In this document: piece by piece, positions 2,295-15,293 of the stretch | Position numbering within the stretch: position 1 is the first letter of the stretch | Layout: each line of letters starts with the position of its first letter | Source: a virus | Strand: one strand, 5' to 3' | DNA length: 16,820 nucleotides | UHGV virus genome: UHGV-0364865 | The notes under the pieces: generated by a model | What the model was told of the DNA's origin: nothing | The model's database searches: none | Seen by the model: only the letters and a program-made list of their open reading frames with translations | Program-made: the position numbers and the translations under genes

Positions 2295-2918
2295 CTAACG
2301 TGTGACCGCATTCAAAATGTTGTCTGCGATTGACTCTTCCTTGTGGCATTGCACCACCAGAGCGTCATACAGCGGCTTAACAGTGCGTGACCAGGTGGGT
2401 TGGGTAAGGTTTGGGATTAGCATCGTTACAGCGCGATATGCGGCGCTTGCTGGCATCCTGGAATAGCCGACGCCTTTGCATCTTCCGCACTCTTTCTCAA
2501 CAACTCTCCCCCACTGCTCTGTTTTTGCTATATCAACCGCACGACCTGTACCGTGGCAATCTCTGCATCTTGCGCCCGGCGTCGCGGCACTACGGCAATA
2601 ATCCGCATAAGCGAATGTTGCGAGCACTTGCAGTACCTTTGCCTTAGTATTTCCTTCAAGCTTTGCCACACCACGGTATTTCCCCGATACCTTGTGTGCA
2701 AATTGCATCAGATAGTTGATAGCCTTTTGTTTGTCGTTCTGGCTGAGTTCGTGCTTACCGCAGAATGCAGCCATACCGAATCCGGCTTGTGATTGCGCCA
2801 TCCCCATAGCAGCCATCACATCAGTACCGGAAAGAGAGTCAGAAGCCGTAGCCCGTGGTGAGTCGCTCATCATTGGGCTTTTTGGCGAATGAAATTTAGC
2901 TACGCTTTCGAGTCTCAT
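2295..2918 (-). CDS. Q: Late-gene antiterminator Q
   Basis: 207-aa ORF, MRLESVAKFHSPKSPMMSDSPRATASDSLSG...CRDCHGTGRAVD...ECGRCKGVGYS..., matches lambda Q including the zinc-binding Cys cluster; start overlaps the ninH stop (ATGA). Confidence 0.95.
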   Translation of the reverse strand: MRLESVAKFHSPKSPMMSDSPRATASDSLSGTDVMAAMGMAQSQAGFGMAAFCGKHELSQNDKQKAINYLMQFAHKVSGKYRGVAKLEGNTKAKVLQVLATFAYADYCRSAATPGARCRDCHGTGRAVDIAKTEQWGRVVEKECGRCKGVGYSRMPASAAYRAVTMLIPNLTQPTWSRTVKPLYDALVVQCHKEESIADNILNAVTR

Positions 2919-3103
2919 CGTCTTCCCCTCTTGCCCTGTTTGACCATCAGGACGCCGTTAACTATTACGTGACGCTCACCTTTGCTGTCTCGGTTGTACT
3001 TGAGCACTGTTCCTCTTGCGCAGGAAAGCATCCTCGCCACTTCGGTCTGATTGTCTCGTGTCTGGATAAGAAGCTCTGGTATCGTTTGAATTGTGGCGTT
3101 CAT
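2915..3103 (-). CDS. ninH: NinH-like small DNA-binding protein
   Basis: 62-aa ORF with GNQTEVARxLxCxRGTVxKY and VNxVLMV motifs resembling lambda NinH but clearly a divergent allele; sits immediately upstream of Q as in lambda. Confidence 0.7.
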   Translation of the reverse strand: MNATIQTIPELLIQTRDNQTEVARMLSCARGTVLKYNRDSKGERHVIVNGVLMVKQGKRGRR

Positions 3104-6064: not shown

Positions 6065-7441
6065 TCATACGTCAGCCCCTTGTGCATATCGTCTGCCACG
6101 CGCAGCAGGTGCATTTGATGCTGTGCAAATCTGTCTGGCTTCATCCTGGTCACACGCAACAAAGTGTCCGTTGCAGAACCGCTGGTAAACCGTACCAAGT
6201 GAGCCAAAACGGTTTTTCGTCACGATGATTTCAGCAAATGGCGCGGCGCTACTGTTCTCGTCATATACAGCTTCCCGATAGAGCATGATGATTGAGTCTG
6301 CGTCCTGTTCAATGCTTCCTGAATCACGCAAATCTGCGTTTGTCGGGCGCTTGTTTGGTCGCTTCTCAACATCGCGTGAAAGCTGACTCAGGGAAATAAC
6401 CGGTGTTTTCAGGTCTTTCGCCATCGCCTTCATGCTTCCGGAGATGTGAGCAATTGCGAGGTCGTTGCGGTCTGCTTTCGGCTTCTCAATCAGGCCAAGA
6501 TAATCCGCCATGATGAGTGACAGGTTTGGATTTTCCTGTTTGTGCCTTTCTGCGATTGAGCGAATTTCTTCGACCGATAACCGCGAGGCATCGACTACCC
6601 ATACATCCAAATCTGCAAGCTGACTCATGCCGTTAGCAACACGCGCCCAGCCTTCGTCATCCATCGATGCAGGATTTCGCAGTACGCTAACCGACATTCT
6701 CCCGGCGTTGGCAATGCTTCGCTCTGCAATCTGCAATGCGCTCATTTCCATTGAGAAAATCAATACTCCGCGCCGGACGTCAGAACCAGGAATAACGCGG
6801 CTTGCAACGCCTTCGGCAATCTTCAGCGCCAGTTCGGTTTTCCCCATACCAGGACGAGCAGCGATTATCACCAGGTCTTCTGCGTTCATCCCTCCGGTGA
6901 TAGCGTCAAGCTCTTCGATTCCGGTCTTCAGGGTATCGGACTCTTCTCCGTTCCTCAGACGCCTGTCAAGCGTGTCAGTGTAGTCGGTGATGATTTCCCC
7001 TAACCGTACAGGTTTAACCTCGTCACGGGGCTTTCTGATAGCTGAAAGACGCTTTACGAGCTCGTCCATCGCCTGACTCGATGTATCGATGGTTCCGCTC
7101 TGAATTGGTTCACGCATTTCATCCATGATTTCCAGCACCAGACGGCGGTGATAGTTATCCGCGACCATTCCGGCATATCCCTTCAGGTTTGCGGCACTCG
7201 GGCAGTTTTTGCTGGTCATCAGGATTGACGTGAAATGCTCCTCTCCGCACGCCTCGGCAACCATCAGCGCGTCGATTAGGTTTCTGTTTCGCGCCTGCTT
7301 GCGGATAACCTCGAAGGCTTTCCGGTAGAGCGGAATTGAAAACGCTTCCGGCTCCAGCGTTGCCAGAACGTCGCTGGCGGTTGGTGTTAATCCACCAATC
7401 AGCAGGCCACCGATAACGCTCGCTTCGATATCCTGTTTCAT
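6065..7441 (-). CDS. Replicative DNA helicase, DnaB-like (P22 gene 12 type)
   Basis: 458-aa ORF with DnaB N-terminal domain and a RecA-like core: Walker A (ARPGMGKT), Walker B-like (LIMADYLGL), and typical DnaB motifs ([20 protein letters not shown]); ATGA overlap with the initiator gene. Confidence 0.9.
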
Positions 7442-8385
7442 GCAATCCCCCTGTCTGCAAACTTCCCTTCCCGAACTCCCGTTAACGAGTCTTCTCTCAG
7501 CAGGTAATCAAAATCAGCCGTCCAGCCCGTGTCGTTGTCTCCGAAGTAAAACGGCTTGGCCTGATGCACAAACGCCCTGACATACGCCCTGAAACCGTCC
7601 ACGTTTGGCGTTTTCAGTTGCGGGATGATTTTCTTCAGGCGGCGTTTGCGTTTCTCGTTGACCGCAACAGCGTGTGGCAGTCTGTCACCGACTTCGGTGT
7701 TGTAGGCGTTCAGGAAGGATTCGTAGTCGATTCGTTCTGCCTTGCGACGTTCAGGTTTAACCTGCCCATCGCCTCCCCCATTGGGGGGTAGGGGGGTATT
7801 ATTTATATTCTTGTTAATACCTTCTTGTTCATGATGTGCGGTTGTTTGTGCGGCTTCATGTGCGCTTTCATGTGCGGCATGTACGCTGAAAGCCGCGCCA
7901 TTGCTGGCTTCATCATGTGCGGAATCATGTGCGGTTGTTTGTGCGGCTTCATGTGCGGGTAAATCGTCCATTTTTTGAGCATATTCATGGTAATTTGTGA
8001 TGGTTATCACACGACCTTTTTGCTTCTCTCCATCAATGGAGATCATCCCCTCTTTCACAAAAACCTGAAGCATCCGCTCAACCTGATCACGGCTTGCTGG
8101 CTTGCCATGTCTGTCGCATAACTGAAGACCTAAATCAGCTGCTGTCACAACCAGTTGACCGGGTTGCAGATGCCATTCATTACCTTTGAAATTCGCTTTG
8201 TATGGCTTTCTGGCGGCATTCAGGAGAAGGTTTTCCCACAGGGTGCGAAGATAAACATCTTTCGCCCATGACTGTTTCAGAATGCTCCGGTACAACGGAA
8301 TGTAACCAGTTTTCTGGTTCTCCATCCTGTTGCTCCTGCGCTCGTGTGCGGCGCTGAAATCGTAGATTTTTGCTGTATTGCTCAT
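7438..8385 (-). CDS. Replication initiator, lambda O-like (P22 gene 18 type)
   Basis: 315-aa ORF; N-terminus [10 protein letters not shown] resembles lambda O (MTNTAKILNF); internal repetitive linker ([10 protein letters not shown]...) is encoded by DNA iterons; directly upstream of the helicase. Confidence 0.8.
7829..7958. repeat. Origin-type iterons inside the initiator gene: tandem ~12-bp units (consensus about YTTCATGTGCGG) in two clusters, including a perfect 31-bp direct repeat (7834-7864 and 7927-7957), with an adjacent AT-rich block at about 7797-7820
   Basis: Read directly from the sequence; the arrangement (iterons plus AT-rich segment inside the O-like gene linker) parallels ori-lambda. 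The 61-aa ORF 7803-7988 is an artefact of these repeats. Confidence 0.75.
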
Positions 8386-12074: not shown

Positions 12075-13043
12075 ATGAGTGAAGTAACAGATTTAGTTGT
12101 TATTGAAAAAGCAAATGCAATGACTGTATTTCAGTCTTCCGACCAGATTGAAGAAATCCTTCAAAAGGTTGAACGTGAAGTTATGTCCTTTGTGCCTGAT
12201 ATCACAACGGCAAAGGGCAGAAAGGAGATCGCTTCTCTGGCGTATAAAGTTGCGCAGACGAAAACATATCTCGATGGTCTTGGCAAAGACCTTGTTGCTG
12301 AACTGAAGGAAATTCCAAAGCTAATTGATGCCAACCGCAAGACAGTGCGTGATCGCCTTGATGAGCTGAAAGCCAAGGCACGCCAGCCTCTTACTGATTA
12401 TGAGGAAGAACAGGCGCGGATTAAAGCCGAAGAAGAAGCTAAGGCAGCAGCTGAAGCTCTCGCAAAGCAAATTGAGTCTGACCATGAAATAGCGATTTTG
12501 ATGGATCGCGAATTTGACCGCCAAAGAGAAGAGGCAAGACTCAAAGCGGAGCAGGAAAAGCGAGAGCATGAAGAACGATTAAAAAGAGAAGCTGAAGAGA
12601 AAGCCAGAGCAGAAGCCGAAGCAAAGGCAAAAGCCGAAATTGAAGCAGCAGCAAGGCGAGAAGCAGAAGCTAAGGCCGCAGCAGAACGTGCAGAGCGTGA
12701 ACGCATTGAAGCCGAGCAACGAGCACAGCGCGAAGCAAAAGAGGCAGCAGAACGAGCTGAAAGAGAAAAGCAGGCAGCAATTGAAGCAGAACGCAGAAAA
12801 GCACAGGAGGAGGCTGAACAAATCCGTCGCGATGCTGAAGCAAAAGAGCAAGCCAGAATAGCAGAAGAAAAAAGAATCAAGGACGAAGAAGAGCGTAGAG
12901 CAAAGGATAAAGATCACCGGAAAGAAGTAAATAACAAAATACTTGCTGACCTTATCAAGGTTGGCGCATCAGAAGATGTTGCTAAAAATATCATAACAGC
13001 CATCGTAAAAGGCGAAGTATTCGCAACAAAAATAACCTACTAA
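12075..13043 (+). CDS. Hypothetical protein with a long, highly charged E/K/R/A-rich central helical region
   Basis: 322-aa ORF with strong SD AAGGAGG; about 120-aa N-terminal region, about 150-aa central segment made almost entirely of E, A, K, R, Q (predicted single alpha-helix or coiled coil), and about 45-aa C-terminal region; antisense ORFs across it are low-complexity artefacts. Confidence 0.65.
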   Translation: MSEVTDLVVIEKANAMTVFQSSDQIEEILQKVEREVMSFVPDITTAKGRKEIASLAYKVAQTKTYLDGLGKDLVAELKEIPKLIDANRKTVRDRLDELKAKARQPLTDYEEEQARIKAEEEAKAAAEALAKQIESDHEIAILMDREFDRQREEARLKAEQEKREHEERLKREAEEKARAEAEAKAKAEIEAAARREAEAKAAAERAERERIEAEQRAQREAKEAAERAEREKQAAIEAERRKAQEEAEQIRRDAEAKEQARIAEEKRIKDEEERRAKDKDHRKEVNNKILADLIKVGASEDVAKNIITAIVKGEVFATKITY

Positions 13044-13199: not shown

Positions 13200-13336
13200 C
13201 CATCAATCACCAGATGCTTCGTGCTGCACAGAACAAAGCAGTAATAGCCAGATTTATTGGTGATTCAAAAATGTGGCTTGAAGCAAATAAAGCGATGAAA
13301 TCAGCTATCAACCTTCCGTGGTATCGCAGGAAATGA
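13184..13336 (+). CDS. kil: Kil-like host cell-division inhibitor
   Basis: Manually read 50-aa ORF: MRNEIAINHQMLRAAQNKAVIARFIGDSKMWLEANKAMKSAINLPWYRRK; IARFIGDSKMW resembles the lambda Kil core as recalled; immediately follows cIII as in lambda; SD GAGG upstream. Confidence 0.5.
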   Translation: MRNEIAINHQMLRAAQNKAVIARFIGDSKMWLEANKAMKSAINLPWYRRK

Positions 13337-13491
13337 GTTTTACAGATAACTGGTCAGACGAAGAATTCATTCGTCAGATGAAAGAATTAATCGGTAACGA
13401 AGGAGATATTCATGTCACTTGCAACCACAGTGAAGGAGAGCAAGTTACAGAGACGCATGTACACGCAGAAAGCTCTCTGGTATCGCCATAA
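13333..13491 (+). CDS. Hypothetical small protein (52 aa), ATGA-coupled to kil
   Basis: Manually read ORF: MSFTDNWSDEEFIRQMKELIGNEGDIHVTCNHSEGEQVTETHVHAESSLVSP. Confidence 0.35.
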   Translation: MSFTDNWSDEEFIRQMKELIGNEGDIHVTCNHSEGEQVTETHVHAESSLVSP

Positions 13492-13590
13492 TGGTGACCG
13501 CGAAGGAATGCGGGTATGCCTTAATTTGTCCCGAGTCGAAGTATTAAATCAGCGTTATTTCCTTGGGCCGTGTCCATTCTGAGGTGAATT

Positions 13591-14298
13591 ATGGATTTGA
13601 ACAAATTCGATGAGCCATTCAGCCCTGAAGATATCGAATGGCGAATACAGCAAAGCGGTAAAACACGCGATGGCAAGGTGTGGGCTATGGTGCTGGCTTA
13701 TGTCACGAACCGGGCAATCATGAAACGCCTGGACGATGTTTGCGGCAAAGCAGGATGGCGCAATGAATACCGCGATATTCCCAACAACGGCGGAGTTGAA
13801 TGCGGCATATCAATCAAGATTGATTCCGAATGGGTAACCAAATGGGATGCTGCTGAAAACACGCAGGTAGAAGCCGTCAAAGGTGGTCGTTCCGGTGCAA
13901 TGAAGCGTGCTGCCGTTCAGTGGGGAATCGGTCGGTATCTGTATAACCTTGAGGAAGGTTTCGCACAAACATCTCTCGATAAAAAGCAGGGGTGGCACAG
14001 GGCAAAACTGAAGGATGGAACAGGATTTTACTGGTCCCCTCCATCGCTGCCGGGATGGGCAATCCCAGCATCAGATAACAAACCATCACCAGAAAATACC
14101 AACCAGAAATCTCCATCGGTTGACTGCGAACAAATCCTGAAAGACTTCAGCGATTATGCGTCAACAGAAACTGACAAGAAAAAACTCATCGAGCGTTATC
14201 AGCGTGACTGGCAATTAATGGCTGGCAACGAGGAGGCGCAGGCTAAATGCGTTCAGGTAATGAACATCAGAGTTAACGAACTAAAACAGGCGGCATAG
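13591..14298 (+). CDS. Single-strand annealing protein, Rad52-like (Sak-type) N-terminal region with a separate C-terminal domain
   Basis: 235-aa ORF with SD GAGGTG; sits directly upstream of ssb in the early-left operon, in the position occupied by recombination genes in lambda; N-terminal region resembles Rad52/Sak annealing proteins (from memory); C-terminal ~70 aa looks like a separate, possibly Erf-like, tail. Confidence 0.5.
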   Translation: MDLNKFDEPFSPEDIEWRIQQSGKTRDGKVWAMVLAYVTNRAIMKRLDDVCGKAGWRNEYRDIPNNGGVECGISIKIDSEWVTKWDAAENTQVEAVKGGRSGAMKRAAVQWGIGRYLYNLEEGFAQTSLDKKQGWHRAKLKDGTGFYWSPPSLPGWAIPASDNKPSPENTNQKSPSVDCEQILKDFSDYASTETDKKKLIERYQRDWQLMAGNEEAQAKCVQVMNIRVNELKQAA

Positions 14299-14805
14299 AT
14301 GGCAAGCAGAGGCGTAAATAAGGTGATTATCCTTGGTCGGGTAGGACAAGACCCGGAAGTTCGATACTCACCATCAGGAACAGCGTTCGCTAACCTGACA
14401 ATAGCCACGTCAGAACAATGGCGAGATAAAAATACTGGCGAGCAAAAGGAATTGACTGAATGGCATCGTGTTGCTGTATCCGGGAAACTGGCTGAGGTCG
14501 TGGGGCAGTATGTGAAAAAAGGTGATCAGATTTATTTCGAGGGAATGCTGAGAACCAGAAAGTGGAAAGACCAGTCAGGGCAAGACCGTTACACAACCGA
14601 GGTTCATGTCGGAATTAATGGCGTGATGCAAATGCTTGGCAGCATTGGCGACAGCAAACAACAAGCAGCCAGCAGGCAATCACAGAAGCCACAGCAGCAA
14701 TCATCACCAGCACAACACAACGAACCTCCGATGGATTTTGACGACGATATACCCTTTGCACCAGTAACTCTCCCCTTCCCTCGTCACGCTATTCACGCAA
14801 TTTAA
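14299..14805 (+). CDS. ssb: Single-stranded DNA-binding protein (SSB) with a C-terminal extension
   Basis: 168-aa ORF; N-terminal OB-fold region close to E. coli SSB ([18 protein letters not shown]....TEWHRV..GKLAEV...[18 protein letters not shown]); the canonical tail [11 protein letters not shown] is present but followed by 15 more residues ([15 protein letters not shown]) before the stop. Confidence 0.9.
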
Positions 14806-14818
14806 TCAGGAGAAAATC

Positions 14819-15115
14819 ATGCCAGCGCCTCAGTATGGTGCGGATGACCCGCGCCGCTGTTCCGGTAATTCCGTATCGGAGGTGCTGGATAAATTCAGGA
14901 AAAACTACGACCGGATAATGTCGCTACCGCAGGAAACGAAAGAGGAAAAGGAATTTCGCCATTGTATATGGCTTGCAGAGAAAGAAGAACGCGAGCGAAT
15001 TTACCAGACATCAATCCGACCATTCCGCAAAGCCACATATACCAACTTCCCTGAATATATCGACCCGCGCCTGCGTAATTACCGCTCACGCTATGGCGCT
15101 ATCAGTAATGACTGA
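14819..15115 (+). CDS. Hypothetical protein
   Basis: 98-aa ORF with SD AGGAGA upstream. Confidence 0.5.
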
Positions 15116-15125
15116 GGAATTTACC

Positions 15126-15293
15126 ATGAGAGGACTTGCATACAATCCCGGCATTCTTCCGGCAGAAATGATTATTCGCCAACGCGTAAAGCCAATGCCA
15201 TCGAGAGAGGAATTGCTTAAGAGAAAGAGTTTCGGTTCTGTTAACGACAACAGATATCTGAATGCGACGTGGCGCAAAGGAGGCAACCAGTGA
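15126..15293 (+). CDS. Hypothetical small protein (55 aa)
   Basis: Start placed at the ATG at 15126, preceded by SD GAGGAA; the tracked 106-aa ORF would overlap the upstream gene by about 140 nt. Confidence 0.4.

Follow-up and report, generated by a model that had tools for sequence, protein, structure and literature searches.

The single-strand annealing protein (SSAP) encoded at positions 13591 to 14298 of the window, by which we mean the whole 16,820-nucleotide stretch analysed here (UHGV virus genome UHGV-0364865), is almost certainly a chimera in which a Rad52-type annealing core is followed by a disordered linker and by a C-terminal three-helix bundle homologous to that of P22 Erf.

The gene lies on the + strand and encodes 235 aa, from ATG to TAG. 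The ORF of the original prediction is thus exact, and the C-terminal sequence cited there is found in it. A Shine-Dalgarno sequence, GAGGTG, stands 5 nt before the ATG, and the TAG stop abuts the ATG of a phage ssb gene (14299..14805, + strand, 168 aa; PF00436, E=1.5e-36), itself followed by abc2 for anti-RecBCD protein 2 (14819..15115, + strand; PHROG 656). Upstream are two overlapping small + strand ORFs of 57 and 56 aa of the HK97 gp42.1/gp42 type (13318-13491 and 13412-13582; PHROG 2123 and 1723) and, farther 5′, the gene for a 322-aa Sf6 gp33-like protein (12075-13043). The order in this early-left (PL) operon is Sf6 gp33-like gene, cIII, kil, gp42.1/gp42-type ORFs, annealase, ssb and abc2. 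The recombination module contains no recognisable nuclease gene. With contiguous annealase, ssb and abc2 genes, no nuclease gene and a location in the early-left operon, the locus belongs to the HK75-type Rec modules, composed of anti-RecBCD, SSB and SAP without nuclease and present in 27 phages in a survey of 325 lambdoid phages (PMC12315714, Genome Res 2025). Gene content and order are identical to those of this module type, the DNA is near-identical to that of HK75, and no difference was found. The annealase gene is therefore part of the recombination module of a lambdoid prophage.

As a separate observation, the Sf6 gene 33 homologue at 12075-13043 carries a long Glu/Ala/Lys/Arg-rich middle part, probably a coiled coil. 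It matches PHROG 1376 and 21365, both of unknown function, and is labelled ‘TolA’ in some phages. In several of the compared loci it is kept just 5′ of cIII, with Rad52-type and ERF-type modules alike.

The N-terminal domain, residues 1 to ~155 (13591..14055, + strand), is a member of the Rad52/Sak family according to both its Pfam match and its fold, as had been proposed for the first ~150 aa. The Pfam profile Rad52_Rad22 (PF04098) matched residues 4-136 with E=5e-26 and a score of 91.9 bits (curated cut-off, 20.3), over profile positions 7-153 of 153. When the whole protein and each half were searched separately, as the original prediction had suggested, only the N-terminal half was assigned, to Rad52_Rad22, and no match to ERF (PF04404) or RecT/Redbeta was obtained at E<=1. 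In the same test, the N-domains of P22 Erf and HK97 Erf scored 157 and 152 bits to ERF PF04404. An AF2 model built on 37 homologues (mean pLDDT 82) gave a mixed alpha/beta N-domain with pLDDT mostly 85-94. Foldseek comparison of this model with the PDB returned human RAD52 or yeast Mgm101 for all of the best 13 matches, with probabilities of 0.99-1.0 and E-values of 3e-4 to 4e-3; the resemblance is one of fold, with ~15% identity and modest TM-scores of only 0.3-0.5. The N-domain is also strongly conserved, the alignment of the 37 homologues showing ~60 invariant columns. From its family membership, this domain should form a ring oligomer, bind ssDNA and anneal complementary strands. RAD52 and Mgm101, and presumably also Sak of the lactococcal phage ul36, are devoid of an Erf-type three-helix domain, their C-terminal regions being unrelated to that of the window protein.

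The linker, residues ~157-176 (14059..14118, + strand), is rich in Pro, Ser, Asn and Gln. It is disordered in the AF2 model (pLDDT <50 at residues 162-176) and hypervariable in both length and sequence, with indel-rich, unconserved columns in the homologue alignment. The C-terminal domain (CTD) that follows, residues 177-235 (14119..14295, + strand), is composed of helices 179-192, 196-209 and 214-234. The C-terminal 64 residues modelled alone again gave a three-helix bundle, with a pLDDT of 91 and a pTM of 0.76. No Pfam family was found over the last 85 residues, and no homology of the CTD to the Redbeta CTD or to the lambda Orf fold was detectable, either in sequence or in specific structure. 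The homologues nevertheless keep a motif pattern made of L183, F186, A190, Y203, W207, C220, R227, E230 and L231, and W207, Y/F203 and R227 are among the positions kept across all CTD alleles.

Comparison of the whole protein with P22 Erf by BLASTP aligned only residues 157-235, with Erf 134-205 (63% identity, E=2e-30), and the last 56 residues are 75% identical to the Erf C-terminus. Similarly, a tblastn search of all phage records with the C-terminal residues recovered the P22 Erf tail with E=5e-24. No BLAST alignment was obtained between the two N-domains. The protein thus shares C-terminal homology with P22 Erf while its N-domain fails the ERF profile, and the view of the last ~70 aa as a separate domain resembling the Erf tail is borne out.

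At the DNA level, the likeness to P22 erf is restricted to a sole island of 170 nt (14128-14297, 78% identity) with unrelated flanks. This island starts at codon ~180, which is the linker/helix-1 boundary, and the next P22-similar segment is found at 14809-15267, in abc2, a gene 84% identical in DNA to P22 abc2 and 95% to HK97 abc2. HK97 DNA is 98.5% identical to the window as far as 13583, and similarity resumes, at 95% identity, from 14816; between these points erf and gp40 replace the annealase and ssb genes. A joint at the linker, together with unrelated flanking DNA, shows that the protein is a genuine mosaic joined in the linker.

We see virtually no chance that the Erf likeness is a mere chance or compositional similarity of short helical tails, with no chimera behind it. 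The CTD is indeed a helical segment of only ~60 aa with many charged residues, and it also gives spurious weak matches to coiled coils of colicins E2/E3/E9 (E=0.02 and above), which were discarded as coiled-coil noise. However, such an origin is refuted by the BLASTP score, by identities of 63-96% over 56-79 residues, by the 78% identity of the underlying 170 nt of DNA and by one conserved motif pattern running through ERF-type and Rad52-type proteins. The swap announced in the original prediction is accordingly supported by a sharp DNA joint at the domain boundary. Its description as a swap between superfamilies was generous, since Erf, Sak and Redbeta are placed in one Rad52-like superfamily according to Lopes et al. 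(2010) and later structural work.

The full-length protein is widespread. PHROG 1097 matches its full length (E=6e-130), and the full-length gene is found in 93 phage records at 80-99% DNA identity, with carriers including Sf6 (gene 28), HK75, mEp235, mEpX2, IME10 and many Salmonella P22-like phages. The Sf6, HK75, mEp235 and mEpX2 copies are 98-99% identical in DNA to the window gene; the Sf6 gene 28 protein differs at 2 of 235 residues and occupies the same slot between the kil/gp42 genes and ssb-abc2. Copies in Salmonella phages, including ST64T (orf-235) and epsilon34 (gp36), are the same gene at about 80-94% DNA identity. In a wider search, 5567 protein clusters matched at E<=1e-3. PF04098 was found in all of the best 120 of these 5567; most of the 120 cover 100% of the query, with identity down to 58%, and they span Salmonella, Citrobacter, Klebsiella, Enterobacter, Erwinia, Pantoea, Hafnia and Yersinia. 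The annealase-ssb pair was also detected in 290 of 5426 complete E. coli genomes. The original prediction had held that full-length homologues would speak against a swap if both halves fell into one family. Two-domain homologues are abundant, but their halves do not belong to one family; the chimera is therefore an established family and not peculiar to the window.

[quoted passage not shown] The term ‘Erf domain swaps’ was applied to such proteins in 2008, in the genome paper of epsilon34, where gene 36 was called an Erf homologue. More recently, ‘shuffling of partner interaction domains’ was given as the probable explanation of partner promiscuity and left unanalysed (PMC12315714). Names in this family are unreliable. 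In the Sf6 record, gene 28 bears the annotation ‘similar to phage P22 Erf protein’ and the HK75 and mEp235 copies are named ‘Rad52/22 family’ protein, while PHROG 1097 and RefSeq phage records use ‘Erf-like ssDNA annealing protein’ and PGAP annotates the E. coli pair as ‘Rad52/Rad22 family DNA repair protein’ plus ‘ssb’. The window annealase is not covered by any NCBIfam model. Because the N-domain fails the ERF profile, the ‘Erf-like’ label rests on the C-domain only; it is misleading for a protein with a Rad52/Sak-type core and an Erf-like tail of only ~60 residues.

The window protein and P22 Erf are not the only pair related in this way. ERF-core proteins with the same kind of CTD were found in Klebsiella phage RCIP0034, Salmonella phage S9-5, Erwinia phage Eho49 and Morganella phage IME1369_01. 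P22 Erf is itself recombinant, as judged from its identities: the N-domain is 93% identical to that of HK97 Erf, whereas the CTD is only 41% identical to HK97’s but reaches 96% identity with the CTD of a Salmonella Rad52-type protein. By sequence comparison, it appears as an HK97-like ERF core carrying the CTD allele of Salmonella Rad52-type proteins. When 47 CTDs were clustered at >=60% identity, each of the three largest clusters mixed ERF-type and Rad52-type proteins, and the best cross-family CTD identities were 96, 86, 82, 79, 78 and 75%. Conversely, the window protein and that of Yersinia phage 21.09, both Rad52-type, share N-domains 74% identical and CTDs only 38% identical. This sharing of alleles across families indicates that the CTD follows the local gene pool and not the annealing core. 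Recombination in linker-coding DNA has moved the CTD repeatedly, and in both directions, between Rad52_Rad22 and ERF cores.

Among about 45 proteins and 173 phage records, the CTD was found only on ERF and Rad52 cores. A Redbeta-type core under this CTD, suggested by the label ‘Bet’ in phage PhiR12_2, was rejected: with 99.5% identity to HK97 Erf, this protein is wrongly labelled. Database searches with the CTD alone gave 14 matches in an exhaustive representative search, one of them a spurious repeat protein, and only short fragments in a word-indexed search. In a 42-kb contig, a 106-aa protein (P0133; precomputed Pfam assignment PF11438) carries the annealase linker and CTD fused in frame behind another N-terminus (MDAQTRRRERRAEKQAQWKAAN), which we take to be that of a lambda N-like antiterminator. 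Presumably the prophage is in decay and a deletion across its early-left operon produced this fusion.

We then considered what the exchanged domain may do. P22 Erf fragments without the C-domain are said, from the work of Poteete, Murphy and colleagues in 1983-87, to keep rings and DNA binding and to be inactive in vivo. Redbeta is likewise built of an N-domain, a flexible linker and a three-helix CTD, the latter binding lambda Exo and the SSB C-tail and being required in vivo (PMC6393309). For Gp77, a homologue of Erf, cryo-EM shows a ring made of residues 1-125, with a flexible three-helix C-domain at its periphery (PMC13017515). The window protein resembles Redbeta in its annealing N-domain, flexible linker and three-helix bundle of ~60-80 residues, but Redbeta pairs with its own exonuclease whereas the module of the window annealase has Abc2 and SSB and no nuclease. 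By analogy, the CTD is probably a protein-docking domain, which would be needed for recombination in vivo and not for DNA binding. A simple model would thus involve an N-domain that forms rings and anneals complementary ssDNA, with the ~20-residue disordered linker tethering the three-helix CTD as an exchangeable module.

The CTD might instead act within the annealase, as an autoregulatory or higher-order assembly element gating ring or filament formation. The short C-tail of Mgm101 is described as modulating ssDNA binding and ring stability (PMC3655812), and the C-domains of Gp77 form an extra ring-like density above the ring (PMC13017515). However, a domain packing on its own N-domain should co-evolve with it, and here the same alleles sit on two N-domain families; a long, disordered and hypervariable linker also suits a tethered docking module better. 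We therefore regard a self-acting CTD as very unlikely and retain docking on another protein, for which each of the neighbouring genes offers a possible target.

Abc2 is one of these. The original prediction stated that no partner exonuclease gene is present, which is literally correct, but the abc2 product (PF11043, E=3.8e-61) may replace it through the host nuclease: Abc2 is described as turning host RecBCD into a resection nuclease, as in P22 and HK620 (Murphy 2000 via PMC5928155), and by analogy abc2 would be a functional stand-in for the partner exonuclease. P22 Erf shares with the window protein, besides the homologous three-helix C-domain, the linker plan, the module slot 5′ of abc2 and the presumed reliance on Abc2-modified RecBCD; it differs by an N-domain of the other Pfam family, ERF versus Rad52_Rad22, and by a module carrying abc1 where the window has ssb and Arf where the window has gp42-type ORFs. 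The CTD could accordingly dock the annealase on Abc2 or on Abc2-RecBCD and load it onto the emerging 3′ strand, as the Redbeta CTD, which binds its nuclease partner, does on lambda Exo. The gene lies two genes downstream of the annealase, it is found in 78 of 80 loci with an identical CTD, and P22, HK97, Sf6 and epsilon34 all pair a CTD-bearing annealase with abc2. Against this, no PF11043 gene was found in the CTD-bearing modules of an Erwinia prophage (L011), an Enterobacter prophage (L012) and a Hafnia locus (L014), and Eho49 is classed as ‘SAP only’ (PMC12315714 Table 1). Moreover, Abc2 is highly conserved (84-95% DNA identity), yet the window and HK97 share abc2 genes 95% identical with CTDs only 38% identical. 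Abc2 as the CTD target is thus improbable.

The small ORFs upstream were considered in the same way. The gp42.1/gp42-type ORFs, 98.5% identical in DNA to those of HK97, fill the slot occupied by arf in P22. Their PHROGs, 2123 and 1723, are labelled ‘recombinase’, apparently without experimental basis. The CTD could bind such an accessory protein, Arf in P22 or the gp42/gp42.1 type in the window, which would stimulate the annealase. In favour of this, the annealase start is always abutted by a small ORF (Arf, PF17585, in P22; gp42/gp42.1-type ORFs in 77 of 80 loci with an identical CTD), and, according to its annotation, Arf of P22 stimulates recombination mediated by erf. An Arf homologue (PF17585) also occupies the same slot in the Enterobacter prophage (positions 2846-3004 of L012), this time before a Rad52-type annealase, which indicates that the accessory ORF is shuffled independently of the annealase core. 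The small ORFs are, however, unrelated families: P22 with Arf and the window with the gp42 type carry the same CTD cluster, and HK97 has a gp42 98.5% identical in DNA to the window’s with a CTD only 38% identical. CTD alleles did not co-vary with abc2 or with the type of upstream ORF, Arf versus gp42. There is accordingly little probability that the CTD serves to bind these small proteins.

The neighbouring SSB was the possible partner named in the original prediction, which had noted an extended-tip SSB directly downstream of the annealase. The window SSB indeed ends with ...DFDDDIPF followed by 15 extra residues, and the same extended allele is present in HK75, mEp235, mEpX2 and epsilon34. 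Sf6, by contrast, has a canonical SSB tip, and its ssb is separated from abc2 by an HNH endonuclease gene; HK75 and the window are alike in lacking the HNH gene and in having the extended SSB. Pairing holds at the operon level: the annealase-ssb junction is 0-1 nt wherever a Pfam SSB gene is next (window, Yersinia 21.09, S9-5, Morganella, Hafnia and Enterobacter), whatever the core family. It does not hold at the allele level. A single-sequence CTD scan of IMG/VR returned 80 contigs, all of them loci with a 98-100% identical CTD. All 80 have a Rad52-type N-domain and ssb, and the two loci without abc2 look truncated. The SSB tip is extended in 59 of 79 and canonical, followed by the HNH gene, in 20 of 79. 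Identical CTDs thus stand beside both SSB forms, the expected co-variation between CTD and SSB tip was not seen among these loci, and an allele-specific pairing of the CTD with the neighbouring SSB tip was rejected. The occurrence of identical CTDs with a free or a buried SSB IPF tip also argues against a tuned interaction between the CTD and the phage SSB tip. In addition, P22 carries a nearly identical allele of the same CTD cluster without a phage ssb, and Erwinia prophage L011 and phage Eho49 have a CTD-bearing annealase with neither ssb nor abc2.

The SSB tip deserves a description of its own. The last 14 residues of the 15-residue extension (SSB residues 154-168, 14758-14805) are the C-terminus of the Sf6 gene 26 HNH endonuclease ORF (Sf6 locus 7192-7671). 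In Sf6-type phages, ssb ends with ...DSDIPF* and the HNH gene lies exactly between the IPF codon and the shared tail; in the window and HK75, which lack the HNH gene, the ssb reading frame continues through the tail. Just before the tail junction, a stretch of ~120 nt (14640-14759) also differs between the extended and canonical forms. This looks like gain or loss of a homing endonuclease with co-conversion. The extension buries the Phe carboxylate required by canonical SSB partners. At the corresponding place in HK97, gp40 (HK97 locus 2695-3084; 129 aa), called SSB-1b (PMC12315714), has no Pfam match and ends with ...YDDSNPILI. It shares with the ‘SSB’ of Yersinia phage 21.09 (locus 2258-2722) an N-terminal region, M.H.IT..L.KPAREF.AG..IGF, and only the Yersinia protein has a canonical SSB tail. 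SSB tails, like annealase CTDs, thus appear to be swapped between different cores.

Since the CTD does not co-vary with ssb, abc2 or the small ORFs and is found without ssb or abc2, its partner would be, by elimination, one that is always available, that is, a host factor. The leading candidate for a target present in every host would be the C-terminal tail of SSB on SSB-coated ssDNA, an assignment that we make tentatively and at somewhat less than even chance. The composition of W207, Y/F203 and R227 is compatible with an SSB-tail pocket. Counting against it, the SSB tail hardly varies among enterobacteria, and the divergence of CTDs down to ~38% identity is thus left without explanation. Docking of this kind would load the annealase on ssDNA, whether this comes from RecBCD modified by Abc2 or is exposed at replication forks.

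The mosaicism described here is intragenic, clean and quantifiable, with identical partner-domain alleles at a domain boundary on two annealing cores. A 2023 review presents as an open question whether annealases other than Redbeta bind partners by their CTD. The remaining interest thus lies in the function of the shared C-domain, and the allele-sharing pattern offers a set of natural chimeras that can be used to find what it binds. It is possible, though on balance doubtful, that the CTD is a plug-in host-compatibility module, the allele and not the core family deciding which host-clade factor is docked, with SSB-coated ssDNA as leading candidate, and that this is the reason for its swapping. 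If so, transplantation of the CTD would offer recombineering a simple means of transferring annealases from one host to another, and the P22 Erf C-domain, reportedly known since 1983, would at last have a function.
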